Positions 1,326 to 61,551 of a DNA stretch of 64,000 nt are shown one piece after another (positions within the stretch are counted from its first letter, which is position 1; every line of letters begins with the position of its first letter). Below the pieces are notes generated by a model that saw only the letters and a program-made list of their open reading frames with translations, ran no database searches and was not told the DNA's origin. The stretch covers positions 1 to 64,000 of the forward strand of contig MEDY01000128.1 in assembly GCA_001724265.1 (NCBI GenBank), given 5' to 3'. Origin of the DNA: Rhizaria sp. SCN 62-66 (Eukaryota). A program made the translations under genes and the position numbers.

Positions 1326-4231
1326 TCAGAACGCCGACTCGACGGGCTTGTACCCGGCGAACCTGAGTGTGTACTGCTTCACCGACCCGTCCTTGTCCTG
1401 CACGCGCACCGCGACCTGCGAGGCCTGCGTCTCCCACAGCGTCACGCCCGAGGCCTCGCGGCCCTGGAACTGCGCCGGGACCTTGCCCAGATCGGTATTG
1501 TTAGAGAACTCCTCGATCACGCGCCGCACGCCGTGCAGGTCGCTGCGCAGCGAGCCCGGGAAGAGCGCCATCTTGCTGCTCTTGATGTCGCGCGCCCCCG
1601 CGAGCGCGAGCAGCATCATCGAGGCCTCCTGCGGGTGTCCGGCGGCGTCGCGGAAGTGCGCGGGGCGGCGCAGCACGGCCGTGCAGGGGTGCCACACCGT
1701 GGGCGTGAGCGAGAGCGAGAACTCGGCCGCGGTGCTCTTGGAGGCGTAGATGTAGAAGTCGAACGGGTTGCGCGCCGTCTCGCGGTCGAACGCGGCAGCG
1801 GGGTGTGCGCAGTCGCTCGCGTGCGCGTACTCGCATTCGCAGTCGCGGCCGCCGAACTCGTCGACGTCGGTGTCGTCGGCCTCCTCGCCGCAGTCGCCGT
1901 CCTTGTCGCCAGCCAGATCCGGAACGGCAGCGGCCTTGCTGTTGATGTTCTTGTCGTCCTTGTTGTCGCTGCTACGGTTGCTGTTGCTGTCATCCTTCGC
2001 GTCCTGGGGGGCAGCCTTGGCGGTCTCCTCGGCCGCAGCCTTCGCAGCGGCGTAGTCCTCGTCGTCCTCCTTGTCGCTCTCTGCGGCAGCAGCGTCAGCA
2101 GCATCAGCCTCAGGAACAGCGCTGTCAGCAGCAGCAACAGTCGTGTTCGTGTCAGCCTGCTTCCTCTCGTTCTCACTCGTCGCCTCAGCCTCGGCCTCGT
2201 TCGCCTTGCACGCCTCCTCGGCCTTAGACTTGACGGCCTCGCCCGTGCTCTTGTACATGGCGGCCGTGACGTCCCACTTCATCACGGGCGGCGCGTTGTA
2301 CTTGCTCTGCGTCGTCACGCTACCGAAGTACCATGTCGACGGCACCTGCACCCACATCGCAGTCGCCGTGGGCAGGATGCTGGCAACGAGCTCGTGATAA
2401 CCGACCGTGTGCGCGCTATCAGGGTCGGCCGCGTCCTTACCCGCAGCGCCCGAAGCAGCGCCACTCTTGTCGCCATTATCATTACCCTTGCCCTTGCCCT
2501 TGTTGTTGTTGTTATTGTAAGAGTCCCTGTCGGAGCTCTTACTATTGCTGCAAACACTGAACAAAGAGCCCTTAGACTTGGCCTTGGCCTTGCCGCCCTT
2601 AGACGCGTCAGACTCCCTCAACTTATCACTCGCATTGTTGCTGTCTGCAGGCGCAGCTGCCGCGCCGGGGCTCTGGCCCTGCTTGCCCTTCTCCTCGGCC
2701 TCCGCCTTCGCAGCAGCGTCAGCGGCAGCGTCGCTCGCGCGCAGCTCGGGCGTCTTGCGATCGCTCTCCCACTCCGCGATCGGCGCCAGCGGGGCCACCC
2801 AGGACGCCCAGCCGGCCTTGCTGACGTCAGCCACGGCGGCCACGCGCCGCGCCATCGCGCGCGTGAGCGCGAGCTTCTCGAACGCGCGCTCCGCCGACAC
2901 TACCTCGCCCGCGCTCGCGGCCGCCTGCGGGCGCTGGTACTGCAGCGGCGCGGTCATTAGCGCCAGCGAGCGCTTGATGACCTCGATGCTGTCGCCGTTG
3001 GCGAGGTGCGAGTACACCTGGCCAATCAGGTTGCTCGCGGGGAAGCACCAGCCAGGGGCGGCGGAGGCCACTGCCAGCCACAGCGCGCGGTTCGCAAACA
3101 CGGGGCACGTCGTGTTGTCGACGTTGTAAGCAGACTGCGGCCAGTGCGCAGTGGCGGCGACCATCGTCTTGTGCAGGAACGACGCCTGGAGTGAGTGTGA
3201 GTGGCGAAAGATAGTAGAAACGTGATTCAGTGAGTGTGGCTCATAATCTTAATCATAGTGCGGAAATGAAACACTAGGGCGTAGTAAACTTGTAATGTCA
3301 CTTTAAGGAACAAATCTGCCGATTGATAGTGCATACCTGAGGCAAGATCTTGATGCTGTCGCGGCCGAACTGCTTCGTCTCGGCGAGCGTCACCGCGCTC
3401 GTGAGCGTGTCTGCGTTGTAAGTCTGGTAAAGCGCGCGTTCGAGACCCTTGCGCGCCTCAGCAAGGTTGGCAACGAAACCCTCGCAAGAGACCAGTGTCT
3501 CCCTGTGAATGTCAAAAGAGCAAGACGATAGAGAAAAAATATCGACAGAGAACGATTAGCAATTCAGAGTACAGATTGAACGCAATACCAGCATACTAAA
3601 GCGCGCTAACTCGAAACTGGCATTAAACGCAAAAATTAACACACTTTCATTCATAGTTCCAATGCACACAGAACAGACAAGCAAGATATCTCTTTAATCT
3701 TGTTAAAGTGAACACATACCTCTCGTTGTAGCGTGCAGCAACAGGAGGATACATAGCCCAGTGCGGGTAGCCGTGCTTGCTCTTCGTCTGAGACCCCGTA
3801 GGGTTGGCGGGCCAGACAAAGGCCGAGGCGATGTCGGTGTCGGGCGACTCGACGGCGGCCTGGAGCGCGGCGACGAGTGGGCGGTAGGGGTTGCTCTCGG
3901 GGACCACGCTCGCGTCCCACAGCAGCGACGTCAGACTGAGGTCCTTGTTGATTATAACAACCGTGCCGTACGTGGAGTAAAAGCTGGCACAAGTAGAGCA
4001 GGTTGTCAGGTCGGGGCGGTCTGAGCAGAGCGCGTTGTAGAGCGTCACGAAAGACATCGAGTTGGGCAGCGAAGCGTGGAAGAAAGTCTTGACTAAGCCG
4101 CGCTTGTCGTGACAGAGGTCCTCTACACGCTTCTTGAGCAAATTCGCAACAACAATAAAAGAGGCATACCTCTCCTTGATGTCATCAATATGAGGGACGG
4201 GCGCGCAGACGCAGGCAGGCAGGGCTGACAT
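1326..4231 (-). CDS. Uncharacterised ~845-aa protein resembling a phage/bacterial/fungal family (CxxC ... YQRPQA ... RNP ... LFP..LRS.LHGVR.VIE); 3 exons
   Basis: Exons are 4231-3720, 3502-3337 and 3185-1326. The introns 3719-3503 and 3336-3186 both run GTATG...CAG and preserve frame. The stop is TGA. Motifs are TCSTCASF, LWLAVASAAPGWCFPASNLIG, APLQYQRPQAA, APPVMKWD, RNPFDFYIY and LFPGSLRSDLHGVRRVIEEFS. Two low-complexity inserts are present. Confidence 0.8.
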
Positions 4232-5097: not shown

Positions 5098-8000
5098 TTA
5101 ATTGGCGGGAAACTCGCAGAACTTCACCGAGGAGTAAGTGCTGCAGTTGGACGTCTCGCATGTCTTCAAGCTGTTATGCCTCTCAAAGCACCGCAACACA
5201 GTGGTGTCAAAAGGAACGGTACCGTTGTCGCGCGCCGCGGCCACGTAGCCTGGCACACACGACATTACGCGACCGACTGGCACAGCACCACGCAGCAGAC
5301 TCGCCTTGCATGACTTGAAGACGATGAACACAGGCGTATCACACGAGCCCTTGTTGTTCGACGGCTCAGAGGGAACAACGGAGCGTGGGTACATCAGCAC
5401 CGTACCGACAGGGTGCGTCGCCCATGCGGCAGGCGCGGAGTACTCGCCATAGACAATATCGGTGGCAGGTAGCGTCAAAGACGACGTGGCGCACGCAGTC
5501 TCGGGCTCGGGATGGAACAGCGTTACAAAGGGCAGCGACGCGGCAGTCTCCCCGTGAGGCACAAAGCAGTTGTGCAACAACGATCCGAGAGTGTTGCCAA
5601 CAGCAGCGGCACGGAAGTGTGCGGCATTGGCTGGAAACTTTACATCATTGAGCCGCACCACCAAGTGATAGTGGTCAATGCACCCTACCGCTGCGTTGTG
5701 AAACATTGCGTGCATGACAACGTTTGCCTTGGTATTTTTGTCTAACGTCTTTGCAATTGCAGCAAAATGCGCGGTTATAAACTCACGCGCTTTGGCTTGC
5801 AGCTCGCTTAAAGCCGGTAAAGTTGGTGCGCCGTTCACACGCTTAGGGGCCGGAAGCTGCACGTACGTGCTACACTGTTCACTCCACGCAACCCGCCGCG
5901 GGTAGCCGCTCTCTTCCAGACTGCACGCAATGTGTGCGTCAAACGCAGCGTCCCACTGCGCATCCGCCGTCGCATGTGCGGACGGATCCGGATTGCGCGT
6001 CACTAAACCCAGCCTTGTGCCAGTCGTTGCTGCGCAATTGAGAGCTTCAAGGTCACTCTTTGTCTGCTCAAGCGCTCTCTGGTCTTCCTCTCGCTTGAGT
6101 GCCGTCTGCCTCTCCTCCTCTCGCTTGAGTGCCGTCTGCCTCTTCTCCTCTCGCTTGAGTGCCGTCTGCCTCTCCTCCTCTTGTTTGAGTGCCGTCTGCC
6201 TCTCCTCCTCTCGCTTGAGTGCCGTCTGCCTCTCCTCCTCTTGTTTGAGTGCCGTCTGCCTCTCCTCCTCTCGCTTAAGTGCCGCCTGCCACTCTTCCTC
6301 TAGCTTGAGTGCCGTCTGCCTCTCTTCCTCTTGCTTGAGTGCTGCCTTCTTCTCTTCTTCTTGTTGCTTTAAGCACACCTCGAGCTCATGCTGGCGCTGC
6401 GCGCTTGCAGAAACCTGTGCTGCCGTAATCATCTGCTGATCAAGCGCCAGACGCTCAAGTTTTGCAGTCTCCCATGCGCTCTCATGTCGCTTGTCTGCGG
6501 ACACAGATGCGACATGTTGTGACAGCCTCAGATTCCGCTCTTGCTCGCAATTGCGCAACGCTAAAGCTGTCTTTGCTGAAGCCTCGTGCAGCTTGATAGT
6601 CCATTCGGCATTAAGATCACGCAGTTTGTCAGCATTTTGCTTCTCCCAATCGCGCTCGCGATGACGCATTGTAGCGGCAGATGCAGCTTCAGCCTGTAGT
6701 AGCTTTGCAGACCACTGCTACTCAAGAATGCGGTTACGCTCAAGCAGACGCTCGCTCTCAACCTGTGCAGCAATAGCATCAACTTTAGCGCGCGAGAGCG
6801 TTGTTGTCCACTGCATTTCAAGAGTGTTCTCACGGTCACCCTGTGCAACAGCAGCTGCAATGGCTGCGGCATCAAACTCTTCTTGTAGCTTTGCCCGCTT
6901 GGTCTCAAACTCGAGCTAAGCTGCAACGACTGCATCCTCAGCAATGCGAAGCTTCTCTGCCATAGCGGCCAGCTTAGCTGCCCCAGAATCTGTGCACGCC
7001 TGCGGAACATTTGCCCCCTCTGCATCCATTGCATCAGCGTACATTTGCAACGCGCGCGACTGCTGCATTACGTCCGGAAAAGACACAGCGCACCGCACGC
7101 GCACTGCAACGCCGGCGTTGCCAAGAGTTCCATTGTCGCGAGCGTTGCTTGCTTCATAGTCAACAATAATTTTGTTCAGCGCTGCTGGTAAACTCAACAC
7201 AACGGAGGCTTTACGCGGGTTTTCAACCTTAGTATTAACGGGTGTCTTTCCATTTGTGTTATGCTTGGGATCTTGAGTAAGCCACACCTTGCATTCAGCG
7301 CTGGCCTGATTGTTGTCTGCCGAATACAAAGTAAAATTCGCATTCACGTGGCCAAACGTGCTGGCTACTGTCGCGAACTGTTCCGATACATCACATAGAA
7401 CAAGTATGGGAGACGTCGCTGGTGAAACTAAGCCATTATTGTTGAGCAAAGAGCGAGAAACGCATGAGGAGAGCATGTTATCTGTGATGGGAGCGCTACG
7501 ACCATAATAACTTGTGTCATTGTCATCATCCTCGGTCGGCACCAAATCATCAACAACGCGCGCACGGGCACCACAAGTGTTGTAGAGTTCCCCAAGTGCT
7601 TTTTGCATTGGCTCTACTGTTGCTTCGCAGATAATCCCGCAGGAACACGCGTTACAGTGGCCAAATCCATTGATTTGGCTGCTACGCTGAAAAGACGCAC
7701 TACTTTTATGCGATTTAGTTGCACAGCTGCAGTCGCGACGCGCGCTAAAACTAAAACGCACACCACATAGCTTGGCAACGCCTAGCTCCACTGCCTTCAT
7801 ACCGCGCACAAGCGCAGCGAGCGGTACGATAGCCTCACAGACAACCTCACGAGGAGTCAAGGTTAAAGCGGCGTCAGCAAGCGCGGCCTCGAAGGCGTCG
7901 CGTGCAATTTGAAACTGTGTGAGGTCAGGATTGACATGCGCCGACCAGTCACGACTTGCAGTGACTAGGTTGGCCAGCGCCGAGATGTCGGGCACAACAA

Positions 8001-9451
8001 CGGAGTCAGCAATGTTTTTGAGGTCGCAGCGCGCACGTGAGAGCTTCTTATCCTCAGCATCATATGACTGTTGTGTGTAAAGCTTAAGCTGTGACATCAC
8101 TGCTTTGAAGGGCGCGATGGCCTGAGCAGTGTAACTCCTGGTGTGATCAAGCAGAATTGCGTGCTTGCTCTCAATCTCATCCTTGAACTTCATCATAACA
8201 TTTTTTTGCTCCTGTGTTGCAGATGTAATAAACAGTTTAGTGGAATTAGATTTTAGCATTAAGCTTTAAGATTAAAAAAATCACTTTGTTTGTCGTATTT
8301 TTAATTCATTCATGTGCGTTACAACAGTAACATGTCTTCAAATCCATCTTGAATACGCACCTTGACTTTGCGCCCAAACTCGACGAGCTGTTGCGGTAGC
8401 TTTTCCGCGCGGATCCTCAGGTCTGACTGCACCATGCTAATGAGACGGATAGTGTGACCCGCATGCGCACGATTTGCAGCGTTGCATGGCACGCAAACGG
8501 CAGTATTGCAGCTGTCGCACCAGTTGATGATCTCGATCGGTGGTGTGTGCGAACGGCAGTACTGTGCACAATGTTTTTGTAAGCATCAACGCAAAAACAC
8601 AGGAATAATATTGTGTGTTGTTTGTTGCGTAAAATCCCGTGAAGAAAATGTGAAAGCGACGATATTTTAAACAACAATAGTTCAAACAACAAAAAGACAC
8701 ATGTGAGATATTCATACAGGACGGACTAAAGCAACACATATCGTACTTTGCGTGGTACTAGAGTTATCATTTGTCAATACATTGTGATAGTGAAGCTCTC
8801 AAATAACAACGCCTCATTTTGTTATCGTTGTTTGTCACTTGTTACTCATACAAACGTACGAGTACTACAATGTAGTACGCTCACTTATATAAGATGGTGC
8901 TGACTGTTGACAATTCTGCAAAGAATAGTTGTTATGGCAGCAAACACGTACGTTGGGGTTGTTTAAATCCACGGAAGCTGCAAAGGCGCCTGCAGCTGCT
9001 GTTGTTGTTGCGGGCTCGCTCGGGTAGTAGCTGCTCCCGTGACGGCTGGCTGTGGAGACAGTGTCTTCAAGGAACTCACTCGCCTCATCCTAGCCATTGT
9101 GAAAAAGATACATTACAAAACAGCATAGTGATAGGCAATTAAGAATGTCTTATAATCATATCCATACAGTCTACAGTGTTCCTGCACTTTTATATTCTCA
9201 TAATCCGAGTCTTTTTTTCAAAGTCCAAGGAAAGCACTCATCTGTTTGGCTTACCTGCGAGCAGCTCGCACAATTTCTGCGAGGCCTGATATTTGCAGGC
9301 GTGATCATCGTTTTTCCGCAAACCTCACACCGTGAAAAGGTCTATGACATTATCTGTTCGACGACTTAGGTCTTTGCGATAAGATCACGTGTCGGAGAGA
9401 GAGAAGGTAGCAAAGAACAGAAACTGTGAGAGGTGAATCGTATCTTACCAT
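5098..9451 (-). CDS. B-box zinc finger + long coiled-coil protein (TRIM-like architecture, ~1,180 aa) with two in-frame TAG codons
   Basis: Proposed exons are 9451-9449 (ATG only), 9341-9255 (CEVC...CASC), 9089-8952, 8561-8361 and 8211-5098. Exon 8561-8361 encodes CRSH-x9-CDSC-x4-CVPC-x6-HAGH, a B-box type 2. All introns are phase 0 with GTAAG/GTACG/GTGCG...AG. The last exon is continuous except for TAG at 6918-6916 and 6720-6718, and ends in TAA. The 5' exons are less certain than the 3' ones. Confidence 0.72.
6081..6350 (-). repeat. Coding minisatellite, 9 x 30 nt, encoding (EEERQTALK[R/Q])n
   Basis: The unit TCTCCTCCTCTCGCTTGAGTGCCGTCTGCC (+ strand) repeats at 30-nt spacing from 6081 to 6350 with few substitutions. 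Confidence 0.95.
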
Positions 9452-17959: not shown

Positions 17960-20900
17960 ATGAACCTCGCCCCGTTCCCGGCCGCGCCCCGCTCCCTCGC
18001 GTCGCGCCGCACGCGCACCGCGGGCAACGCCGCCGTGCTGCGCCGCGGCGTTGCCGCCTCGTCCTCGCTCAAGCTGGCCTCGCACCTCGAAGAGGAGCTT
18101 AATCAAGAGCCTGAGGCCGACCTCGACAATGAGAACGATGACAGTGACGGTGACTGTCCAGACGACGCAGATTGCTCTGAACACGACGTTACTAGCAATC
18201 ATAACGACAGCTGCAACGGCCGCGCGTGCGACGACGACTGCAGCTCTAGCTGCTGCGTGCACGCCATCAACGAGCCTCAGCCTCAGTCTCAGTCGCGCTC
18301 GACCGCTGTGAACGCTCACCCTGGCTCTTGCACTCGCCTGAGCGCTGACACTGCTGCTGCGGTGTATGGGCCTCTCAAGCACTGCTACAAGACCCACGGC
18401 CACCCTGCTGCCCCCGCTGCTGCGACCGCCGCCGCCGCCGCCACCGCCGCCGGTATCAACAACAGTTACCACACTGAGAATCCCGAGTCCGACAGCGACG
18501 TGTACGACTACAGCTACCGCAATGCCAGCAGCTGCAGCAATACCAGCAGCAACCTCAACAGCAACAGCTACAGCTACAGCGCTGCTCACAACAACAACAT
18601 CATTCGCATCACAGCGAATACTAATGATTGCGACAACAGTTGCTGCCGCACGCATATGCCTATGCACGACTACGACGACGACGACGATGGTGATGACGAC
18701 GAAGTGATTCATCTCGGCAACAACGACGTCTGTCTTGCAAAGCTTTTCAACTCACACTTAGACTCGCATTCGCACTCAGAGTCCCCCTTAGAACCGCAGT
18801 CACACTTACATACAACTCTGCCCCCCGGCAGTGTCACCACCTTCGGCGGCGCCCCCAAGAAGACCGCCGCCGGTGCCGCCGCGGGCGCTGGCGCCGGCGC
18901 CGGTGCTGGAGGCGCCGCCCGCGCCAACTCCAAAGCCACCAACACCAAGGCCCGCGCCGGCGGCAATGTCCCCAACAGCGGCGGCGGCGGCGGCGGCGGC
19001 GGGCCCCCGGCGTCGGCCCCTGCGGCGGGCGGCGGCGACGACGGCGCCTCTGCGGGCAACAGCTGCCACCAGTGCAAGAATAGCAAGCCTCAGTCGGGGA
19101 TTATCTTCTGCATGAACCCCGCCAACGACCCGCGCACGATGCGCAAGTGCCGCAAGAAGTTCTGCTTCCCGTGCCTTGCGCGCACCTACGACGTGTACCT
19201 GCAGTCACTGGGCGATCTCAACGCGTGGGTGTGCCCTGCCTGCTGCGGCCGCTGCAACTGCGCCGCCTGCAAGCGCGCGGGCCCGCTCGCCGCCGCCGCC
19301 GCCGCGGGCGCAACCGGTGACGGCGACGGCGACGCCGCTGGCGCGGGCACTCAGGGCCCCGCCGGTGCCGGCGGCAGCGCCGGGCACGGGCACGGGCACA
19401 GTCACCGCGCGTCCAAGAGCAAGCCAAAGGAGCACCTGAACGACCACCTGCACCCTGTTCAGAGCGAGATCGCGCGGACCGGCGCGGACATGCCGGGCGT
19501 GGGCGAAAATGTCAACAGCACGCAGACGATTCTCGCGCTCAACCTCAACGTGCCCGTCGTGGCCGAGGTCCGCCACGCCGCCGCGGGGCGCCTTGCGGCC
19601 GGCCGCGGCGGCGCCGGCGGCGGGGCCGCCGCGCTCGCAGCGCTGTCCCGCGCCGCGGCCGGCAGCAAGGGCGGCCACGGCCACGGGGCGCAGCCGCCGG
19701 GGCTGGGGCTCGCGGCGCTGTCGCCGGGCAGCCCCGCGTGGAGCCTCGCGACCGCGCACGCCGCTCACTCCACCGCGCACTCCGCCGCCGGCGCTGCCCA
19801 CGGCCACGGTCACTCGCCCGCCCATGGCCACCACGCGTCCAAGAGCTCCAAGCTCGCTGCCGCGGCCGCCGCCGCCGCGGGCGGGGTCAACAGCACGCCG
19901 CACCTCAGCGCCATGGGCATCGCGAGCGCGACGGCGGCGGCGGCGGCCGGGGCGGCGGGTGCCGGCGGCGCCCTCGGTCACCACCCGGGCACCTCGGCGG
20001 GCGCCGTGGCAGCCCACGGTCACTCGGTCGGCGGGGTCGGACCAGAGCACCAGCACCGACCCGGCCACGGCGCCGCCGGCCGCGCCGCCCCCTCCGGCGC
20101 GCGGCTTAATACACACGGAGCACATGGGGCGCACGGTCACGCGGTTACGCCGACGGCGGGAAGCACGTCTTTGTCCCGCACCGGCAGCCATGGCAGCCAC
20201 GGCACCGCTGGCAATGGTAACGGCAACGGCAACGGCAGCGCTGCGTTGCTGCCGATGATGCCGGGCGCCGGGGCCAGCGGGGGCGCCGGCGCCGGCGGCA
20301 GCAGCGGCGTTTTGTCCGGCGTCGGCGTCGGCATGGGCGGCGGTGGGAGTGCCCATGCGATGGCGGGGCTCGGCCTGGGGCTGTTGGGCGGCATGGGCAT
20401 GGGCTACTTCCCCTCCAACTATCACGCCGCCCACGGAGGTGCCCACGGTCACGGCCACGGCCATAGCCATGGCCACGGGCCAAAAGGGGCTGCCGGGAAG
20501 TTCACCCCCGGCTTAACTTCGGCGCGCGGCGGCCACGCTTTGCACAAGAGCAGCAGCAGCAGCGGCCACGGCGGCTTTGCCAGCGCCGCGAACATGACCG
20601 ACGCTGCTGCCGTCGGCGCGGGCGTGACCCCCAGTGTCGACTTCGTGTCCATCACCGCGCGCCGCTCCGCCACGCGCCCGCTGCACGGCAAGAGCGTCGG
20701 CGGCGGTCATGGCGCGGGCAGCGGCAGCGCGGGCGTTGCGGGCGGCAGCGACCGCGGGCAGAGCTCGCAGTCGCCCACCTACGGCAACAACGGCGGCGGC
20801 GGCCACGATGCTGCCAACGGCTACAACGCGAACACAGGGAATGTAAGTACCTCTGTCGGCGGCATTGTAAGTGGGTACGCGGGCTCCCTGGGGTACCGCG

Positions 20901-23900
20901 CCTCTCAGCTGCAGCTCGCGGCCTCAGTCCTCCGCATCCGCCAGCAGCAGCAGCCGTCTCAGCAGCCTCAGCAGCAGACCGCGGCCGGGGCGGCCGGCAG
21001 CGACAACGTGGTGGCCGTCGCGGCCGCGGCCGCCGCCGCCGAGCGCGGTGGCAGCCGCAGCGCCGTGCTGGCTGCGCGCACCTTGGGCGCCACCACGCCG
21101 CTCCTGGCCGCGGCCGCCGCAGCCAAGGCGAAGCACCACGGCACCAGCGGCAGCGCCAACGACGGCGGCTCTAGCTCTAGCTCTAGCTCCAGCTCTGCAC
21201 TGTACGACGGCGGCGTCTCTGCGAGCGCAGCCAACAGCAGCAGCTTCGGTCCCTACGTCATCGGCGGCGCCAACGGCGGCGGCGGCGGCAGCGCGACAGC
21301 GTCGGCCGCCGCGTCCCCCTCGGCCTCGGCGACTGCGCTCGCCAGTCAACACGTCAGCGCCGCCGCCGCTGCCGCGGCTGCGCGCATCCGGTCCTCTTCC
21401 GCGGTCCTCGCGGGCGGCCTAACTTCCACCATGGGCGGCCTGACTTCGAACGCCAACGCGGCTTCTAATGCGAACAACAACAACACCACTGGGAGCAATG
21501 CAGTGAACAATGTGAACAACAACCACAACCACCAGGCGGCGTCGCTTCTGTCCTCGCTGCCGCCCGGCTTCGACCCCAATGCGGTCATCACCGAGGCGCT
21601 GCAGTCGGCGTCGGCGCTCGTGTCGCGCCTCGTGCCGCGGCTCCCGCAGCTCCCGCCGCAGCAGCAGCTGCAGTCGCAGTTGCAGCTGGTGCAACAATCG
21701 CAGGCTATGAACGGTGCCTCTAGCTCTAGCTCTAGCTCGACTGTCCCTGTGTCGACATCAGCTGCGCCCGCGTCAGCGCCTGCACCGGGTCTGGCTCCGG
21801 CCACGGGCACGGCCTCGGCGCTGGCTCCGGGCTCGGCGCTGGCGTCCGCCCCGGCGCCCGCGGTGACGCTGATCGGGCCCGCGCGCACTGCGTGCCCGTC
21901 CTCGTCCTCGGCCGCGGCGGCCATGCTTACCGGGCTGAGCCCGCTTGCCGCCAGCGGGCAGCCCTCGGCCGCCGACTCTGCCTCCGTGGCCGCCTCGGCC
22001 GCTGCGCTGCTGCTCGTCGGCGACGGGCGCCCGCACACTCACGTGGGCCGCGACGGCAGTCTGCTGGGGGCCGTGCCCTCCCCGCTCTCTGCCGAAGGCG
22101 TCAAGGCCATGGTCGCGCGCGGCCGCAGTCGCCACAGCCATGGCCACGGCCACGGCCACGGCCACGGCCACGGTCACTCGGGTGCTCACGGTCACTCGGC
22201 CGCCCACGGTCATCTGAGCGGCGCGGTGAGCCGCAGCGACAGCCAGGTCTCGGTCTCGGCGGCGGCCTCGCGGGCGGCGTCGGCCTCGGTCTCGGCCTCG
22301 GGGTCCGGCTCCGGCTCCGGCTCAGGGTCCGGCGTCAGCGGCGACGACGAGGACGACTACCGGCAGACCATCACCAGCGGCAGCTTCAAGACGAGCCCCA
22401 AGCACAGCAACAGCAACAGCAGTCGGCTGAGCAACACCAGCTCGAGCATCGTGAACCGGGGCTGGCGGAGCAGCGCCGGCCGCAGCGGCAATGGCAACGG
22501 CAATACAGCGATCACAGTGAGCCCCAAATCCGGGTCTCAGACCACGCAAAGTCCTCCCCAGAGCCAGAGCCAGAGCCAGAGTCAGCAGGGCCCCGTGTCG
22601 ATGGCGGACACCGACAGCGGCGCGGGGAGCGAGTCCGACTCGAACGTGAGCGCCCACAGTCACCAGACTGCGCACAGTCAGCAGACTGCTCACAGTCACC
22701 AAAGCGCATACAGTCAGGGCAGTGCCAATACCAACAACGGCAACGGCACTACCGCGACGCACGGCGGCAGCGGCAGCAGCAGCAGTTCTCTGAAGCGCAC
22801 TCTGCTCCTGTCCAGCACTAACGGCGGCGCGACCGCGAACATCAGCCTTAGCGCCCGCGCGGGCGTGTCTATGAGCAGCATCGGCAGCAATAGCAACAGC
22901 AACACCAGCAACAGCAACAGCACCAGCAGCAGCAACGCCAGTAATAACTACAACAACAACAACATTCGCTCGGCGTCGTCGCTGCTGCTCGCGCCGACGC
23001 CCTTGTCGCACACGCACTCTCTGATGCTGCACGGCAACGGCGCCACGAGCGCGATCAACGCCGCAATCAACAACAACATCTTGCGCGGCGGCGCCGGCAA
23101 CGTTACGCCGAGTCTGCTGACGCACTCGCTCAACCTCAGCGGCCTTGGCGGCGCAGGCACCCCCTTAGTCGCTCTAAGTACCCTGTCCTCCCGCCCCAAG
23201 CGCGCGCTGTCGCCGTACATGGGTCCCTCCAGCCTCGCCGGCACTGCCATGCCCCCTGTGGCTTCTACGATTACTGGTACTCCTGGCCCCGGCTCTGCTC
23301 TGGGCTCGACCGCCCTCCCGACCTCCGCTGCCGCTGCCGTCATTGGCGGACCTGCTGGCGCTGGCGCTGGCACGGGCGCTGCTGGAGCGAGTGCGAATGC
23401 GAGCGCGCCCGCCAAGCGGTCCCGGTCCAGCACCGCTGCCACCACGGCGACTGGCGTCATTCTGAGCAGCAACGGCTACTATAGCGACGATAACGCCAGC
23501 GTCATCCTCCCTGCCCACAGTCACTTCTCTGCCACCGCCGCCGCCACCGCCACTGCCACCGCCACCGCCGCTCCGACTGCGCCCGCTGCGACTACCGCCA
23601 ACGGTCTCACTCGTCCCCCTACGACAGCGACAACGACAGCGGCGACTGGTGCCTCTACAGCCAGCAGCAGCCACTGCAATAGCGCCTCGGCGGCCCTGGC
23701 GTCTCCGCTGTCCCCGCTGGCGGCGCCCGCCCCCTCCGAGGCGCCGCCGACGCTTCCGTTCCTGCTGGGCGCGCCGGCGCTGGTGCCGTCTGCCGCGCCC
23801 GTGGGCCTCATCGCCCCCTCGATGGCGGCCGCCGTCGGCGAGGCCGTGAAGAAGCTCGCGGCGCAGCACGCCTCGGCGCTCGCTATCACGCACGCCGGCG

Positions 23901-24562
23901 GCGCCGCCGCCGCCCCTGCGGGCCACGCGGCGGGTGCCGCGGCGAGTGGCGGGGCGAATGGCGGCGCGGGCGCGTTGTCGTCGCCGTCGCCGTCGCCGTC
24001 GCCAGCAGCAGCGGCGAACGTGCCTGCCGGGGCGAGCGTCTCTGGGGACATGTCGATGGTGTATCGGTACCAGCTGCAGCAGCTGCAAAGCAGTATCCAG
24101 CAGCTCTCTGCCGCCGCCGCCGCTGCTGCTGCTGCCTCCGCTACCAACGCCAACTCCAACACTGCTGCTGCTGCTGACTCCGCTGCGTCCTCGCCCTTGA
24201 AGCTGCAGTCCCAGTCTCAGTCGGCGGCTGGGGCTGCGACTGCGAGCGCAGGCCCCAGCCCCACGGTCAGCCTCGCGGCCATCACGACCCTCTCGGGCTC
24301 CGGCTCGGGCCCGGCGCCAGCGTCGGGGGCCGTGCCCGCAGCGGCGGCGCTGCTGGGCTCCGCGCTCGCGCCGCCCCCGCTGTCGACCACCACCTCCCTC
24401 GCCACGGCCACCGCCTCCCTGCCCAGCTCGCTCTCGAGCTCTGGCCCTGGCGCTGGCGCTGGCCCTGTGATGGCGTTGATGCCGCTCACTGCGCCGTCCA
24501 CCGGCTCGTCGAGCCTGTCGTCCGCCGCCGTCGCCACAGCTACCGCCGCCATCTCAGCCGCC

Positions 24563-24594
<32 letters not shown>

Positions 24595-27500
24595 CAACAC
24601 AGCCGCTGCCGGTGCGAACACAGCTGCTGCGAACGGTCACCCGGCCGCCTCAGCAGTTCCAGTCGTGCCGGCAGGCGGGCTGACTTCCACCGCGGCGCCG
24701 TCGGTGCCGATCACGGCCGTGCTCGAGGCTTACCGCGCTCTCGACGACTTCTCGTCGATTTTCTCTGTGCTGGACGCAGGGCAGAAGCGCGCGCTGCTGG
24801 TGATGCAGCAAACGCTGCTCAAGGTCAGCGAGGCGCAGCTGGCGCAGCTGCCGCAGGGCAGCAGCAACGGCAACCACAACAACGCGGGCAACTACAGTGC
24901 CGCGAACAGCTACGGCGCGGGCACGGGCGCCGGCTACCCCTACAGCAGTCCCGGCAGGAGCACCGCCGCTAGCGCCTCCGCGAGCACCGCGAACACGAGC
25001 AGAACCAACAGCGGCTACAGCAATGGCGGCTACGACAGCGTCTCTGCCGGCAGCGCCAGCTCCAGCGCCAACGCCAGCGGCGGCGGCGGCAAGTGGCGTG
25101 CTCCGTCTCACTTACAGCATCAGCAGCAGCATCAGCAGCAGAGCAGTGCTGCTGGTGGCGGCGCCGGCTTAGCGACGACGCTGGCTGCGCCCACCGCTAT
25201 CTCGGCGGCCAACGCCGCCAGTCATGGCACTGGCGGCCAGCCGCGCGTCTCAGCCGTTCAGACCAGCAGCAGCGCGAGCGCGAGTCATACCGCCAGCAAC
25301 GGCTCGATGATGCTCGTCAGCGGTAGAGGCAGTAGCAACGGCACCACCAGCAGCGCCGCCGCGACCGGCACCGGCGCCGGCACCGTCGCCGTCGGCGTTG
25401 GAGGCAAGCTGATCGGCAGAGACGCGCTCGACGCCGACGCCGCGGCCGCAAACGGCGGGATGTTCAACGGCCTCCGTCTCAACGCTCCCATAGACGACGA
25501 ACAGGGAGACATCAGTGACCTCTTGGACCACTTGGACCTCAGCATGCTCATCGCGCTGGCCGAGTCGGACACGCCCCCCGACACCTCAGCCACCACTCCG
25601 GTCCCTGACAGCAGCGGCAGCGGCGGCAGCGGCAGCAGCGGCGGCAGCGGTGGTGCGAACGCGAGGCTCAGTGCCAAGGGCTCTAGCTCTAGCTCTAGCT
25701 CCAACTCTAGCTCTAGCTCTAGCTCTAGTGGCAGCGGCAGCGGCAACGGCAGCGGCAGCGGCGCGAGCTGCAGCGCTAGAGCGCGCAAGGCTCAGGTAGC
25801 CTTGCGCGACGCCGCCCGCAGTGTCCTCAACACCTACCAGCACACCCCCAGCAAGAGCACCGACGCGAACAGCTCCAGCCACACGAGCAATGGCAACGGC
25901 TCGAGCGCGCGGGTCGCCGGCTCCAGTCCCTTCGGCAGCAGCCGCTCTGTGTCCGGCGGCGGCAGCGGCGGTGGCTCCGGCGCCGCTGCGGGCGCGGCGG
26001 CGGCGCGGTACAACAACGCGGGCCACTTCAGCGCAACGAGTGTGGTCAACTTCAGCGCTGTGGCCACCTCGCTGGGGCTCGATGCCGGCAAGCTCAAGCA
26101 CTTCATCCGGGAGCTGGCCGCGCGCAACCTCGCCTCCAACAGCGTTGTCGTTGCTCCCTCGACCTCTCTCTCCAGCCCCAGAGCCAGCGGCGCCGGCAGC
26201 AACAGCAACAACAACAGTGCCGTCGGCCTCGGGAGCCGGAGTAGCACCGCGGTGACCGTGAGCACCCCGTCCCGTGGCGGCCTCATGGGCGACGGCGACG
26301 GCGACGACCTCGACCAGTTCGACGGCCAGAGAGGCGCGGGTGCGGGCGGCGGCGGCGGCGGCGGCGGCGGGCTCAAGGCGTTGGGCGCGGCCGGCGGTGG
26401 CGGCAACCCGGTGCTGGGGCGCGTCGGTGGCAACCGAGCCGTGTGCGCGCTCTCGGCTGCCGCGACGGCCGCGGCGCCGACGCGGACCGACTCGCTGCAG
26501 CAGCCGCCCAACGCGCTGGGCGTGACGGGGCAGGAGCTGCTGCTGATTCGCCGCGCCGTGGCCGCCAAGGTGGGCATGACGGTGGGGCCGGCCATCGGGA
26601 ACGACATTGACATCGTGTCGCTGGCCAAGGCGGGTATGATCGACCGCAAGAGCATCTGGGACACCGACGGCGGCAACAGCAGCAACAGCAACAGCAACAA
26701 CGGCAGCATTGCTAACGCCAACAGCATGAACAACGCGATCACGAACATCATCAACAACAGCACCGGCGGCGGCAACAGCGGCGTCGGCCTCGGCAGCGCT
26801 AGCACCAGCACCACGCCGCTGCACCTGCCCGTCCCCAACGGCGGCAACGGCGGCGGCAGCGGCGGCGGCGGCAATGGCGGGAGCATGCTCTCTCTGTTCG
26901 ACTTAGGTAGTTTTGGCGCCACTCCTTCCTCGTCGGCCCGTCTGGGGCCCATCCCGCACAGCGGCGGTCTCGGCGGCCTTAGCGGCCTCGGCGGCGCCAG
27001 CGGCGGCGGCGCGGTCAACGCGACGCCCAGGCACTCGAGCATCACGACCAGCAACGGCGTCAATAACGGCAGCACGGGCGACCTGCTCTCCAGCTCCAGC
27101 CCCGGGCCCGGCGCGGGCGCGCTGTCATTGGACCTCGTGGACCTCCGTCTGCCGCTGAGCACGCTCATGGCTGACGGCGACGACGGCGACTCCAGCGGCA
27201 GCCGCAGCAGTCGCGGCCGCAGCAGCAACAGCAGCGACGCGAACAAGGGCGGCTCGGGCGCCGGCGGGGGCTCTTACTCCACCGCCGCGCCTGTATCGGT
27301 CTTCGTCTCCGGCTCCAGCTCGAGCTCCAACTCCGGCTCCGGCAGTACACCTGCCAACGAGAGCGCCAGCTCCAGCTCTAACTCTAGCTCTAGCGTGAAC
27401 AGTGCTAGCGCCAGTGCCAGCGCCAGCGCCAGCGCCTCTAGCGCGCGCGCGGCGGCCCGGTCTGCCTCGGGGGCGGCCAACGCGGCGGCGCTGGGACTGC

Positions 27501-29041
27501 TGCCGCTGCCGCTGCCGCCCGTGTCTGTCTCGCTGCCGACGCCGCTGCCGACGCCCTTCACGACGACGGCGGGCCCGCTCTACGCGCCCTTCGCACCGTC
27601 GCCGCAGTCGGCGCTGGTGGCCGCCGCCGCAGGGACCCCTACCATTGACGGCGACGACGATACAGAGGCAGTCACAGGCGTCGGGCTGGGGATGGGCGCC
27701 GGCAGCGGCGACGGCGCCGGCGACGGCGGCGACGGTGGCGGCGACGGCAGCGACCGGGCTGGCAGCAGAGGCCGAGTCATCAGTGGTGGCAGCGGCAGCA
27801 GCGGCGGCAGCGGCCGTCCCATGAACATCAACAACAACAGCAACGGCAACAATTCGAACTCTAGTTCGAGCTTTAGCGCTGTCGTCATCGGCGGCGGCGG
27901 CGGCCGGGCGAGCGCGAGCGCGACGCCCAGCAAGCCGTTGGCCCTCGCGGCCATCGTGCCGTCCTCCGCGCTCGCCTCACTGGACGCCGGCGCCGCTTCG
28001 ACCTCCGCGACGACCACTGCCACTGCGGCTGCGGCCGCGGCTCTGCGCGTCCCGGCCGCCAGCACGGGCAACCCCGCGGGCACCCTCCGCTCCAACGCCC
28101 GCCTCAGCTCCGCATCCAGCGCCCACGCGGCCAATCCCGGCGCCGCTGCCCACAGCTCGAGCAGCAGCGGCAGCGGCAGCACTGACAAGCGGCTGCCCGG
28201 CGGGTTTGTGCTGCGGCCGTCAGCGCTGGCCGTGGCGGCCTCGGCCGAGCCCGGCGCGCGCGTGCTCATCGACACGCTCGACCCCACCGCCTTCGGCTAC
28301 GCACCCGTGCCTGTGCCCGTCTCCAGCAGCATCAACGCCCACGGCAACGCCACTGCTGCTACGAGCGCGAGTGCGGCTGCGGAGGGTCATGCTGGCTTCA
28401 GCGGCAGCAGCACGCTCGGTCTGTTGCGGGAGGCAAACACTTACACTAGCGCCAACAACTCGAGCTCCAGCTCCAGCTCCAGCTCGAGCTCTGGCTCTAG
28501 CAGCAGCAGCAACAGCAATCGCAGTAGCTTCGACGCGCAGCAACACATGCCCGTGCCAGTGCCGCTGCCGCTTCCTTCGGCCCTCGCGCGCCAGTTCTCC
28601 ACCGCGGTCAACGCCACCGGCGCTGGCGCGGAGGCCGTCTCGGTGCTGCCGCTGCCGCCGTCGATTGTGCGGTCGTCGACGGTGGTGGACTCGGCGACGG
28701 GCCGCGTCTCGCTCGCGGCCAGCGCGCACGACATGGGCCTCGACCTCGCCGCGCTGCTCGCGGTCTTCGTCGGCGAGAGCCCGTGGACGAGTCTCAACGC
28801 ATACGCGCAGCAACAGCGGCAGCAGCAGCTCCCGGAGACTGCGCAACAGCAGCGGCAGCAGCAACAGCAACAACAACAGCAGCAGCAGCGGCAACAGCTG
28901 CCGATTGTTGCTGCGAGCAGCAGCATCAGTTCGAATGCGGACGCTGATGCCGGTGCGAGCGCTGGTGCGAGTGCTGCTGTGGTCATTGACAAGGCTGGCA
29001 GCGGCGGCGCTGTGAAGCTCAGTATGAGCGATGATCTCTAA
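17960..29041 (+). CDS. Giant (3,693 aa) intronless low-complexity protein with one zf-4CXXC_R1 (CDCA7/JMJD1-type) zinc finger
   Basis: The ORF is 11,082 nt. SCHQCK...C..(KCRKKF)CFPCL...WVCPACCGRCNCAACKR lies at about 19061-19276. The remainder is Ala/Ser/Gly/His/Asn/Gln-rich. Confidence 0.9.
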
Positions 29042-34588: not shown

Positions 34589-37500
34589 ATGTATGTTATG
34601 CGCCTTTTCTGTACAGTAGTAGTGCTATTAATAGTAGCGTTTAGCGCTCGGGCTGCGCCGGTTGCACCTGCAGCCGGGGTTGGCCGCGCCCGTAGTGCTA
34701 GACAGTCAGTCGTTACACCTGCGACTGCCACCTTGACGGACAGCACAGACAACACTGAGAAGGAGGCTGTCGGCACCAGTACACACAGATCAAGCATTAC
34801 CAACCGTGTTAAAGCTAATAATAATGTCGCTGATAGCGTCCAGCGTCGTCGCACCATGATCGGCTCCAACCGTAGCACATCCTGGCGCGACAGCAATCGC
34901 AAGAGTGAGAGCAAGCGGGACCGCGAGCCGACGGGCAGTGCGATCATGACAGCAGCTACACCTGCTCGCGGTACTAATAGCTTTCGCACCCATGACAATG
35001 CTGTGGTTATGAACGGAACGAACCACGGTAGTGACCGTGATCATGCCAAAGTCATTGGTGATAGCGCTGAAGCTGGCACGAGGGCTGAGATTGCAACGAC
35101 GCCAGAGGCACAGGTTGCTCGCAGCACAGAAGCTTCAAAAGCAAAAGTAGAGACAGCAGAGGCTGACGCCAAGACAATTGACAACAATGACCACGGAAGC
35201 AAAAACAGCAAAGCGGGCGAGGCAACAGCGGATGTTGCACATGAAGATCACAAGGCAACAGTTGGTTCTGAGATTGTGAATGTCACGATTCCATTGCAAT
35301 CACAATTACAACCACACATGCGCCCAGTTCGCGTCGCTATTATTGGCGCTGGACTTGCTGGTCTTGCAACCGCCCTTGCTATTAAAGATATCTTAACTCC
35401 ACGCAAATCGCCCAGAGCAACTTTTAGTGACCGTAGCTCTAGTGCAGAGGTTCAAACCGATGTGTTTGAACGATCAAGCCCACCATTTACAACGTCAACC
35501 TATCAGTCATTTGATTTAGACTCACAGCTACGCAGCGGCGCGAACGTTGATTCAAGCGACATACTGGTTTCCAAGAGAGACAGGAGGCTAAGTCGTTTTG
35601 GTCCATCCCATCGCCGATCCTTAGACTCTTTAAGCTCGAGAGCTAACATCAGCTCCATCGATCCAATAACTCTACTTTCTTCTGTCAACTTTGCTGAGAG
35701 TAGTCACACGTCATTTGCGCCGTTCATGACTGCGCTAGCAACGCGGTTACATGTGTGCTCACAAACTAAGATGACCACACATCATCATAGTCCTGATGAC
35801 CGCTATCAAGGTCCTTTGTCACAAACTGCACTGACTTCAGTTGCTTCATCATTGCTTATGCCTGACAGCGCGATGAAAACAGTTGTTCCAATTTCCACAG
35901 CAAATGCCATCATGAGTACAGCCAGTCTAAAGACAAACAAAGTTCTTGCGTTTTTATGCTTGCTGCGCGGTACTGCCACTGCGACAGCCCCACTAACTCA
36001 ACCAGCAAAAACGCAATTTGGGATGGCAAAGGGCACAGAAAGCAACAAGAAAAGCAATGACCTGAGCATCAGCAAGGAGAGTTTCGATAACAACAGTAGT
36101 TCTGCTGCCACGTTTGCACATGGCCTTCTTACCGCCTTTGATCTGTTATCAGCACCAGTTGGCTCATATGCAAACAACATTCCTCATCTAACTGCACTGC
36201 ATGGCGGTGGCGGCTTAGCATTAGGAGGAGGCTTACACGCCAGCGTTAACGAGGAACTTAATGATATTAATTCTCGTGTTCATGACGACATGAATGACGA
36301 TGATATGTTTGCGCATTCGCATTCCCTACTGCACTTGCAGCAGTCAAGCGTTGATAGTCGCGGCAGCAGTCGCAACGCCAATAACAATAATATTGATGCT
36401 GTGTATGCCAATGTGTGTTCACGGTACATTGCCACAGATCTCGGTAAGATGTCCTCATTTACAGATCCGGAGGCGTTATCGGCTATATCAGCGCTCTTCA
36501 CACCTTTACAGTGGTCAATGCTATCGTCGCCGTCTTCATATACTCGTGCAGCCGCCGTAGCTGCAGCAGCTGCAACAAGTACAACGCGTGATCGTTTCAG
36601 GACACGTGCTCAGGATGGCGTTGCGCGCGCATGGCAGGCATGGGGAACTGTAAGCTCAGCTCTTAGTCGCGTTGTCTGCCAGTTAGATAGCGCTGATGCT
36701 TCGGCATATGATGCAAGTGCAGGTCTAAGTACTCGGCTTGACTTATTACAACGTGTGGATTGGCCCACAGCTGTAACTGCTGTCTTGGATCCAAACGTCA
36801 TCGTAAGGGAACTAGCACGACAGAAGTCACATTGCACTCTAACATCCTTGGCACAGATTCATAAGAGCAGAAACAAAGAAAGTTCACAGAGTCTGCAGAT
36901 GTTAAGTGTCCGCGTCAGTAATTTCAGGCGCTTTGATACGCTTTCACAGCTTTGGCGAGCGTTACACGTACGCTCTCAGCAAAATAAGAACCAAGCTGCA
37001 GCTGCAACAACCAATCCCGCAACTGCCATCAGGAATTTAGTCAAAGCTAGTGCACCGCAAAAGCCAGCAGTGATCACAACCGCGGCAGGATTTAGCATTA
37101 ATCCGTTGTTGCTTTTGCACGAATGGATATCGCACATAGACTTGTTGCGCTCACTTGTTGGTTGCGAGAATAGCAGTGCTAGCAGCATCAGCCACACTGA
37201 TAGTAAAGCAACAAAGTATATTTTGCCTGTTGCTGCTCCTCGTGATAATGCCAATACTTTGACTAGCAGTAATGCCATTGCTTCGAGTTGGCTAATGCGA
37301 CACGCGCTGCTACCTTTACCCTCTTCCCTAAAGCATAGCTTCTTGACCACAAATACGAACACGTTAAGAAACGTTAGCATCGAGTCCAAGAGCAGGAGTA
37401 ACCAGTCTGGTACTATCAACAGCAATCGTGTTTCAAGTTCATTTAAGTGTGATAACTTCATTAGTAGTGACAGTGAAATGTTGGAGTTACTCGTCAAGGA

Positions 37501-49763: not shown

Positions 49764-51701
49764 TCATGTCATGACAGCGTTGTTGTTGCCGCTCCCCGCG
49801 TCACTCATCGGGACACCCCCGCTCGCGCCCGCATCCGCCCCCGCGCCGGCAGCAGCAGCGGCGGCGGCACCGGCGGCGGCGCCGGCCTGGTTGACGCACA
49901 CGTTGTAATGCGCGGCTGCTGGCCTGCCGCAGCAGCCGCAGCAGCCGCAGCGGGGCGCGCCCGCCTCGGCGACCATGGGAGGCACACGCACGGTGTCGAC
50001 GTGGCGCACGCCGCCGCGCACGTTGCGCCGGAAGCGGTCGCGCCCGGTCGCGCTGGACTGGAAGTGCGCGGCCAGCGCCGCCGCGAGCGCCAGACGCCGC
50101 CCGGGCCCCGCGGCGGGCGTCTCCAGCAGCAGGCGCAGCAGCGCGAGCGCAGTGGCCAGCGGCATGCCCGCGACGTTGACCAGATACGTCTTGAGCGACT
50201 TAACGGCGTACGAGGAGCGCACGACGACGGCGTTGCCGAAGTCGGAGCGCAGCAGCGTGGGCGCCGCGCTCTGCCCGTCGAGCAGCGGCAGGCTCGCAGC
50301 CGTCGCGAGGGCACGAGGCCCGCTGCCCGCAACGCCTGAGGCCGCGGTGCCGACTGTGGTCGAGGCGCCGGTGCGCGCGGCCATGGCCAGCTCGGCCTCG
50401 CTGACGGGCGGGAAGTCGATGCTCGCGCCCAGCTCGAGCGCGTCCTTGCGGTGCTCGTAATAGTACTTGATGTCGCCAAGCATCTGGGCCGAGACGGCCG
50501 CGCGCTGCTGCGGCGTCTCACGGTCCTCCGGCTTGGTTTTGAGCTGCTGGTAGCGCCACACGGGGTCGTGCTCGCGGTCATCGAGGCACAAGTCCCGCAG
50601 CGCGCCCATGCGCTCCGCGGCCGCCTCGTCGTCCTCGACCTCGGTGTCCGAGTCGCAGCAGCCCACGTCGGGCCCGTACATGGGCGGGATCAGCGGGATC
50701 GCGGGCGTCAGCGGCGCGTCGAAAGGCAGCAGCCGCGCGCGGTCGCCTGCCGCGAGCTTAGGGATGATGCACGGCCCGAAGACCTGCGGCCCCGCCAGCG
50801 CGTCGAGCTCGTTCGTCTCGCACATGTTGCCCCACTTGGAGCGCAGGTCCATCACCGAGAACCCACCCAGCCAGGGCGCGAACCGCGCGTCGCGCTTGAC
50901 GCGGCTGAAAAGCGTGTTGCCGCATTGCGCCACGGTCAGCGCGGCCGTCAGCCCGCGGTCCGCCATGTCCGTCCCGATCACCGTCACGGCGTCCGTCAGC
51001 ACGGCCTCATGGTGCGGCGTCCAGTCGCTGCCCTTGAGCGCGGCCGCGCGCTTCCCGCGCAGCGACGTGAGGAACTTGCCGTGCGCCGTCTCGTCCGCGG
51101 TGAGCCGCACAGAGGACGAGCCGAGGCGGCTGTCGCCGATGACGGCCCCCGCAAGCACCGGGGCCGCCGTCGACAGGCCGCCTACAAGGGGCGCAGCGGC
51201 GGCCGCCCCAGCAGGGGTCGCGGGCGCAGCGGCCGCGGGGGCGGCGGTGGGAGCGCTGGGGGCGGCGGCGGCAGCGGCGGGACTAGAGCTGGAGTTGAGG
51301 AGGCGGGCGAGTGCCTCCGCCTCCTGCTCGGCCTCGGCACTAGACGCGGCAGCAGCTGTGGGCTCGGGCTTCGCGGCGGCGGACTCGAGCTTGACCAGGG
51401 CAGCGTCGGCCGTCGCGGTGACCGCGTCCGCGTCGTCGGTCATTGCTGCAGCAGCGGCGCTATCATTCGCAGCAGCGGAGCCGGGCGCCTAAAACTTGAC
51501 AGTGACGTCGCCGTCGGCGGCGGCAGCGGGCTGAGAGGCAAGGGCGGCCTTGCGGAGGGCAAGGCGCTCCTTGAGGGAGAGCATAGCCGACGGCGCGGCA
51601 GCAGTCGCCGCGTCGGCAGTGGCAGCGGAGGTGTTGGTGTCGTCGTCGTTCATGGTGTTGTCGGCAACGGGGGAATCCGCCTTCTCGGTAGGGGGCTGCA
51701 T
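49764..51701 (-). CDS. Uncharacterised ~645-aa protein with a telobox-type Myb/SANT-like domain and one in-frame TAG (51491-51489)
   Basis: ATG 51701 opens a GC-rich coding-like frame, MQPPTEK...DVTVKF*APGSAAANDS...MTDDADAV, that is continuous with ORF 49764-51443. WTPHHEAVL...VKRDARFAPWLGGFSVMDLRSKWGNM (about 51023-50823) resembles the TRF/TRB Myb motif DLKDKWRNM. Confidence 0.7.
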
Positions 51702-61300: not shown

Positions 61301-61551
61301 GCGATGTCGCGGTACTACAAGCAGTGCCTCGACGAGCTGATGCAGATGCAGCGGCAGCACCAGCAGCACATGCTTGAGCTAGAGCGGGAGCAGGAGCAGG
61401 AGCAGCAGGGGCTAGAGCTGGAGCACAAACAGTCGCAGCTGGTGCTCGAGCCCGAGACTGAGCCGGACGCTGACGCTGACGCTGACGCTGAGGCAGGTGA
61501 TGACGCCGAGGCTGAAGCTGCTGACGCTGTTGAAATCGACGTCGATATTGG

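Follow-up and report, generated by a model that had tools for sequence, protein, structure and literature searches.

Few eukaryotic lineages are known to have a nuclear genetic code in which UAG alone has changed its meaning (PMC5304391, PMC11687900). In the rhizarian exLh, UAG encodes leucine (Leu), and in Iotanema spirale it encodes glutamine (Gln); Amoeboaphelidium is listed in the same account among the organisms with non-canonical nuclear codes (PMC5304391). As described there for exLh, all 384 of the 384 in-frame stop codons found in 71 genes are UAG, the bona fide gene ends are UAA (56) and UGA (15), and highly expressed genes make the least use of UAG (PMC5304391). Furthermore, the mining of metagenomes has revealed phyllopharyngean ciliates in which UAG was reassigned to Leu or Gln, as reported in PMC11687900. 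Here we describe a gene of an uncultured eukaryote in which UAG likewise appears to be read through. It lies on the minus strand at 5098–8259 of contig MEDY01000128.1 (assembly GCA_001724265.1, deposited as Rhizaria sp. SCN 62-66), of which the first 64,000 nucleotides (nt), hereafter the window, were analysed together with 33 loci of the same gene family found by scanning the metagenome contigs of one data set (93 kb; cited by L numbers, with L001 being the 3' end of the target gene itself). The gene is interrupted by two in-frame TAG codons. Collectively, the data lead us to conclude that UAG is probably not a terminator in this organism and serves as a rare sense codon, perhaps for Gln or glutamate (Glu).

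Translation of 5098–8259 (minus strand) yields a single frame of 1053 codons, internal TAGs included, which ends with TAA at 5098–5100; related proteins begin opposite Met22 (position 8196). The two open reading frames (ORFs) that compose it under the standard code, 6916–8259 (447 amino acids, aa) and 5098–6669 (523 aa), are in one common frame, as the sequence-only reading had claimed, and the peptides quoted in that reading, VVAA*LEFETKRAKLQEEF, LEMQWTTTL, LE*QWSAKL and LNAEWTIKL (the asterisk standing for TAG), are all found in the translation. The first TAG (TAG1), codon 448 at 6916–6918, is the stop of the 447-aa ORF if the standard code applies; the second (TAG2), codon 514 at 6718–6720, lies 66 codons further on within the motif LE*QW. 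These are exactly the two internal stops of the gene. Neither TAA nor TGA precedes the terminal TAA and no frameshift is present, including in the comparison with the related protein P0006, so the earlier observation of two TAGs with no other lesion holds over all 1053 codons. The tryptophan-containing quasi-repeat (LEMQW, LE*QW, LNAEW) indeed runs on through the linker, and the exon-like composition ascribed to the linker was borne out as well: the G+C content (GC) of the stretch between TAG1 and TAG2 is 0.52, compared with 0.51 and 0.57 in the flanking ORFs. Unlike this stretch, the 3' flank has a GC of 0.39, and the composition between the two TAGs also differs from that of an AT-rich intron in the ERO1 gene of locus L033. 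Past TAG1 the frame stays open for 605 codons before the next in-frame TAA or TGA; after the 15 ORFs of the window that end in TAA or TGA, the next such codon follows at a median of 9 codons and a maximum of 100.

The TAGs do not stem from a mistake in a single assembly. In sequencing run X2, a DNA contig spans 6242–7946, differs from the window only at position 6272 and keeps both TAGs, and another from run X4 spans 6743–7939 without a single difference and keeps TAG1; at TAG2 the X4 cover has a gap, with contigs ending at 6710 and restarting at 6743. Neither TAG has a listed variant. In public protein collections, the 447-aa product (P0175) is recorded on 4 contigs, and the 523-aa product (P0004) is recorded, along with 4 length variants, in several assemblies. 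These products of the C-terminal half (453, 473, 503, 523 and 543 aa) differ by whole 10-aa repeats, and one of them also by an N-to-S substitution. At the RNA level, a 195-nt contig from the poly(A) metatranscriptome X14 covers 6845–7039 with no differences and crosses TAG1 colinearly, with the TAG retained, although DNA carry-over into this library is possible. For the interval 6650–6950, which the sequence-only reading had singled out for a transcript check, RNA speaks in favour of its proposal at TAG1, where the contig is unspliced and unedited, and TAG2 is without RNA cover. RNA contigs are likewise missing from the greater part of the gene, an absence that carries no information on expression.

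An exhaustive HMMER search for relatives of the target yielded 159 related proteins (cited by P numbers). Within one ORF, P0006 (808 aa) matches both aa 22–420 and aa 764–1050 of the target, and both end domains are likewise found in single ORFs of P0007, P0022 and P0082 and of the loci L004 and L006. The co-occurrence of both end domains in single ORFs of relatives implies that the two target ORFs represent one gene, and on this comparison 5098–8259 is best read as one gene and not two. Its N-terminal domain (aa 22–420; 7000–8196, minus strand) belongs to no Pfam family and displays 38–47% identity to the N-terminal parts of P0006, P0011, P0012, P0016 and P0180; it was modeled as a mixed alpha/beta structure with a mean predicted local distance difference test (pLDDT) score of 70. 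In the ESM Atlas, the entries nearest in language-model features to the region 6919–8196 (minus strand), which holds this domain, are trypanosome variant surface glycoprotein clusters (0.85), and we take this match as a lead only. The domain is followed by a linker (aa 426–745; 6025–6984, minus strand) that contains both TAGs and is predicted to be helical from its composition and model: proline and glycine make up 1.5% of aa 431–760, and A, E, L, K, Q and R together 70%. When the TAGs were read as Gln, AlphaFold predicted aa 426–552 to form one unbroken helix extending over both TAG positions, the blocks that include them having pLDDT values of 87 and 93. The linker also comprises a tandem 30-nt repeat (6086–6342, minus strand; 8.6 copies, encoding ALKREEERQT units), the copy number of which varies by whole units. 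The different copy-number states of 6086–6342 across assemblies may represent either real length polymorphism or assembly collapse.

The C-terminal domain (aa 764–1050; 5110–5970, minus strand), located downstream of both TAGs, is a conserved module of a large family. It displays 47–55% identity to many proteins and its model has a pLDDT of 94.8. The 31 best-scoring solved chains aligned to residues 76–287 of the model have Z-scores of 7.2–8.7 over 127–156 residues, with root mean square deviations of 3.1–4.4 Å, and almost every named chain is a cyclophilin or a cyclophilin-like protein, the top Z-score being 8.7. Such Z-scores are in the middling range, and it is the uniformity of the match list that argues for the predicted cyclophilin-like fold, which we assign to the module on the strength of the model. 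Sequence-based comparisons gave no relatives of this kind: Pfam, including its cyclophilin model, had no match in the C-terminal region of the target or of 48 relatives, and a profile search of PDB sequences with the domain found no relatives. The best ESM Atlas score for the domain was 0.78, which gave no lead.

The family is large, with the 159 matches and the 33 loci in one metagenome, and fast-evolving, with ratios of nonsynonymous to synonymous substitution rates (dN/dS) of 0.39–0.92; none of its relatives was found among viral contigs. In the relatives, the C-terminal module is combined with different N-terminal partners, namely, the target-type domain, sometimes with a B-box before it, a helical-repeat region with weak armadillo-like matches or a kinase lobe (P0014). 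The B-box of P0061, with 24.2 bits, just exceeds the cut-off of 24.1, and those of P0076, P0079 and L004 are below it; the target has no B-box match, and no RING was found in the 48 proteins examined. In L032 (1–810, plus strand) and L014 (2–958, plus strand) a ubiquitin domain follows the C-terminal module in frame (Pfam E-values of 8e-26 and 1.5e-24, respectively), and in L032 the ubiquitin domain is itself followed by a Peptidase_S74 (intramolecular chaperone) domain, an unusual fusion. A different neighbor is found in L020 and L022, where the family gene is in both cases followed by a P-type ATPase gene. Compared with the L020 gene (2627–6859), the L022 copy (2665–3530), which stands directly after the family gene, has lost its initial 403 codons as well as ~840 nt of internal sequence, and the latter deletion changes the reading frame.

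The interruptions of the paralogous loci are strongly biased toward TAG. Inside the tblastn matches of the 33 loci (9,626 codons), 15 in-frame stops are TAG, 4 are TGA and 1 is TAA. The 29 loci without a frameshift account for 14 TAG, 1 TAA and 2 TGA, the 4 frameshifted loci for 1 TAG and 2 TGA, and in ten loci TAG is the sole lesion. Given the codon usage of the family and several mutation spectra, TAG is expected to constitute 0.45–0.48 of single-base nonsense mutations, and 14 of 17 in the unframeshifted loci exceeds the expected ~47% (binomial p = 0.003). In the other frames of the same ORFs, TAG is less common (102 occurrences) than TAA (159) or TGA (465). The gene ends show the opposite picture: the first TAA or TGA after the conserved AVPVG motif, determined in 26 family loci, is TGA in 18 and TAA in 8. 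A TAG precedes it in 6 loci, and in 5 of these 6 homology to relatives continues past the TAG. Beyond its TAG, L004 reads FRPV and then TGA; L012 keeps a Cys motif and ends 22 codons on; in L014 the reading runs on to the ubiquitin domain; and in L027 the core motif continues. In L032, TAG is located inside the ubiquitin domain, opposite Ala28 of ubiquitin and a CAG (Gln) codon of the paralogue L014. L002 and L021 have a common TAG at one aligned DNA position, and at other positions aligned between these two loci TAG pairs with CAG and with TTG.

Genes of the window outside the family display the same pattern. A GC-rich gene (high GC at third codon positions, GC3) for a WD40 protein has a TAG at 63311–63313 (plus strand; ...SSFNANGSS*SSFNTHNNSS...), beyond which the frame remains open up to the window edge, no fewer than 229 codons away; the coding score is 0.50 ahead of the TAG and 0.58 past it. 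In gene 34589–39898, a TAG at 39518–39520 (plus strand) is followed by 125 more open codons with coding-like usage up to a TGA, and in gene 49764–51872 a TAG near the 5' end (51489–51491, minus strand) is flanked by coding-like sequence on both sides (scores of 0.75 and 0.54). Altogether, the target and 12,773 other codons of the window have 5 in-frame TAG, no TAA and no TGA. Conversely, each of 14 window ORFs outside the family is closed by TAA (8) or TGA (6) and none by TAG, and five non-family genes in the loci all end in TAA or TGA. The apparent TAG end of ORF 55779–56816 (at 56814) sits 5 nt inside a probable intron at 56809–56960 (plus strand), an AT-rich GT...AG segment of 152 nt (CCAG/GTACTT…TTTTAG/) recognized from the sequence only, removal of which would probably join this ORF in phase (phase-1) to ORF 57368–63313. 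Since this TAG lies in a probable intron and the frames continue past the other TAGs, none of the window genes can be shown to end in TAG.

The sequence that follows the TAGs also differs from that following the accepted ends. Downstream of the TAGs at 39520, 63313, 6918 and 6720 the GC is 0.52–0.55 and the next 60 codons hold no in-frame TAA or TGA; downstream of the 15 TAA/TGA ends the GC is 0.34–0.50 and 1–7 in-frame TAA or TGA are found in a span of equal length, apart from a single end. The frame is open for more than 100 codons after 3 of the 4 TAGs versus none of the 15 TAA/TGA ends (Fisher p = 0.004). When TAA or TGA was taken as sense, no comparable joining of large ORFs was seen, although the high GC makes this ORF-merging test noisy. 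A simple codon-score scan of all TAGs is confounded by the antisense frames of GC3-rich genes.

If UAG is indeed a sense codon, the ribosome would read both UAGs of the target and produce a protein of about 1030–1050 residues, consisting of the N-terminal domain, the helical linker of ~320 residues and the cyclophilin-like C-terminal domain. UAG would then be decoded by a tRNA, either a dedicated one with a CUA anticodon or near-cognate tRNAs, and eRF1 may have lost UAG recognition or have it weakened. The inserted residue may be Gln or Glu; a crude BLOSUM tally over the residues aligned with TAG gave 10.6 for Q, 8.4 for E and 7.1 for K. None of the TAGs falls at a hyperconserved position of a housekeeping protein, and neither the window nor the loci gave a match to any Rfam family. 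The rarity of TAG and its alignment mostly to paralogue codons one base away fit a recent or inefficiently decoded reassignment. We also tentatively consider, as a possibility that is on balance rather doubtful, that the capture of this stop codon is at an early or ambiguous stage, in which UAG has gone from gene ends, has ceased to terminate and is re-entering as rare, young, mostly lineage-specific codons at tolerant sites of fast-evolving or disordered regions, possibly without a fixed meaning due to near-cognate decoding. If true, this would be a natural nuclear example of 'codon disappearance then capture' in a previously unsampled eukaryotic lineage, the largest visible gene family of which is the one described here, with its B-box, long helix and predicted cyclophilin fold.

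A number of observations weigh against a sense UAG, and many of them would be expected if the organism used the standard code and the locus were a recently inactivated member of a fast-evolving family, with TAGs that are nonsense mutations and a product of at most 447 aa. The family does include decayed copies: 4 of the 33 loci are frameshifted (L019, L021, L025 and L026), and the 4 TGA and 1 TAA were encountered inside L013, L025, L026 and L028. The dN/dS values of paralogues span 0.39–0.92, with 0.92 for L002 versus L007, and are higher downstream of some TAGs, as in L006 (0.72–0.79 downstream versus 0.44–0.54 upstream). The TAG of L022 is located in the truncated, internally deleted ATPase copy. 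Moreover, the paralogues carry residues of several kinds opposite TAG (Q, E, K, L, S, Y, R and A at 22 sites), and the aligned codons are mostly single-base neighbors of TAG, as those of fresh nonsense mutations would be, TAG being also the most accessible stop with an expected share of about 0.47. TAG is very rare, with 3 occurrences in 12,773 codons of neighboring genes (about 0.02%), all in low-complexity stretches, and 12 in 8,326 family codons (0.14%), and none was found in the recognizable housekeeping domains examined (RIO2, eIF3d, RPL14e, P-type ATPase and ERO1). The window and the 33 loci (157 kb) have no tRNA genes of any kind. The ends of the 26 family loci are partly shared by descent and do not represent 26 independent cases. 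Finally, the nearest relatives of the target are 43–50% identical, too distant to read from them the residues at its TAGs or its own dN/dS, and no orthologue showing the residue at either TAG was found. Because the family has true pseudogenes and dN/dS values of 0.4–0.9 and the conserved housekeeping domains examined contain no TAG, the locus taken alone could be a young pseudogene, and to this extent the claim of the sequence-only reading, that two lone TAGs point to reassignment and not decay, is not secured by the single locus. It is nevertheless supported by the one-gene relatives, the TAG bias of the interruptions, the TAA/TGA ends and the other genes that cross TAGs. Indeed, decay under the standard code leaves unexplained why TAG is absent from gene ends (0 of 26 in the family and 0 of 19 in other genes), why TAG makes up 14 of the 17 stops of unframeshifted copies (p 0.003) and why three unrelated genes of the 64 kb, one of them the GC3-rich WD40 gene, have a TAG followed by 125 to >229 open, coding-like codons; it also has to accommodate the 1053 codons of the target without a frameshift, TAA or TGA. 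We therefore regard inactivation of the locus under the standard code as unlikely.

Two further explanations would retain UAG as a stop. It could be bypassed locally, through programmed readthrough dependent on context or RNA structure, through RNA editing or by splicing out of the TAGs. Introns are present in the organism, as in ERO1 and probably at 56809–56960, and within 6600–7050 there are, by chance, 21 frame-preserving GT...AG pairs that span both TAGs. The stretch between the TAGs, however, has an exon-like GC (0.52) and is part of the predicted continuous helix, and the X14 RNA contig (6845–7039) is colinear, with TAG1 neither spliced out nor edited, DNA carry-over being possible. As for readthrough signals, of the five stretches downstream of TAGs, that at 63311 shows unusually favorable folding (z of -3.75), whereas the other four are unremarkable (z of 0.01, 0.77, 1.19 and 0.20); no downstream RNA structure common to the TAG sites was found, and the 31 TAG sites examined have no common sequence context. 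Furthermore, local bypass does not explain the absence of TAG terminators, and we consider it very improbable. Still less credible, to the point of being nearly dismissible, is the possibility that 6916–8259 and 5098–6669 are two independent neighboring genes separated by an untranslated spacer and in a common frame by chance. Two adjacent genes have a one-in-three chance of a common frame, the second ORF begins with ATG at 6669, and standard-code gene callers list separate proteins, P0175 and P0004. By contrast, both domains occur in a single ORF of four relatives and of L004 and L006, and the 246-nt spacer has no TAA or TGA, has exon-like GC and carries on the W-containing quasi-repeat, which is modeled within one helix; spacers after real ends drop to a GC of 0.34–0.50 and hold stops. 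Taken together, the evidence favors translation of UAG as a rare sense codon.

Metagenomes in which the window sequence is represented come from seven studies and derive from bioreactors, wastewater, fuel cells and biofilms. The DNA of the window is nuclear and eukaryotic and includes genes for RIO2 kinase, eIF3 subunit d (eIF3d), ribosomal protein L14e and WD40 proteins. These genes are long, mostly intronless ORFs with GC3 of 0.8–0.95, separated by AT-richer spacers. The best named matches of eIF3d, which are fungal, are only about 31% identical, suggesting a lineage without a sequenced close relative. The ERO1 gene in L033 (minus strand, about 1836–2066) is interrupted by a low-GC intron of ~165 nt with canonical borders (GTACGC...CGCAG); thus, this largely intronless-looking genome does splice. 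Among the genes of the window, 34589–39898 (plus strand) and 5098–8259 (minus strand) stand out by GC3 of 0.44 and 0.50–0.63, respectively, compared with 0.8–0.95 in their neighbors, and both have in-frame TAGs; no Pfam domain was found in the former. The ORF at 17960–29041 (plus strand) encodes 3693 aa at 71% GC and has zf-4CXXC_R1 (residues 364–444) as its sole recognizable domain.

If UAG is translated in this organism, a further independent case would provide a data point on the frequency and the route of stop-codon reassignment, and the host would be a widespread wastewater or bioreactor organism without a sequenced close relative. Its very low TAG use is unusual among the described cases and would open an 'early stage' of reassignment to study. 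There would also be a practical consequence: standard-code gene callers split or truncate the genes of this organism, as public protein collections already do at the locus, and such metagenome bins would have to be annotated with another translation table.

In its architecture, the target family is reminiscent of the fusions of TRIM5 with cyclophilin A (TRIMCyp) that occur in primates. As in TRIMCyp, a B-box is found in some members and a long helical segment is followed by a C-terminal domain with a predicted cyclophilin fold. Unlike TRIMCyp, no RING was found, the target is without a B-box match and has an extra N-terminal domain of no known family, and its C-terminal domain is missed by the Pfam cyclophilin model.

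With regard to the genetic code, the closest parallel is exLh. In both cases the in-frame stops are overwhelmingly TAG and the gene ends are TAA or TGA, and here TAG is absent from the housekeeping domains examined, similar to the distribution described for exLh (PMC5304391). The two systems differ in the use of the codon. According to the published description, UAG occurs about 5 times per gene in exLh and Iotanema, at hyperconserved Leu or Gln positions (PMC5304391), whereas in the organism studied here, known from metagenome contigs, TAG constitutes 0.02–0.14% of codons, is located outside conserved domains and is aligned with mixed residues. Similar to the phyllopharyngean ciliates, UAG alone appears to be changed, the other stops are kept and the evidence comes from environmental assemblies; unlike here, the ciliates, as reported, yielded suppressor tRNA genes and widespread sense UAG (PMC11687900). 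The organism is also not ciliate-like, having long GC-rich genes (GC3 of 0.8–0.95) and an eIF3d only about 31% identical to its best named (fungal) matches. The context-dependent codes of Condylostoma and Blastocrithidia resemble the present case in that a stop triplet is translated inside genes, but, in the published descriptions of those organisms, the same triplet still ends genes when it is near the 3' end, whereas no TAG end was found here and intact genes of the window have no internal TAA or TGA. The literature searched gave no description of a eukaryote from wastewater or activated sludge in which UAG is reassigned. Thus, if our interpretation is correct, the organism would represent a code change of a known kind, a UAG-only nuclear reassignment, in a new lineage and with unusually early-looking codon use.

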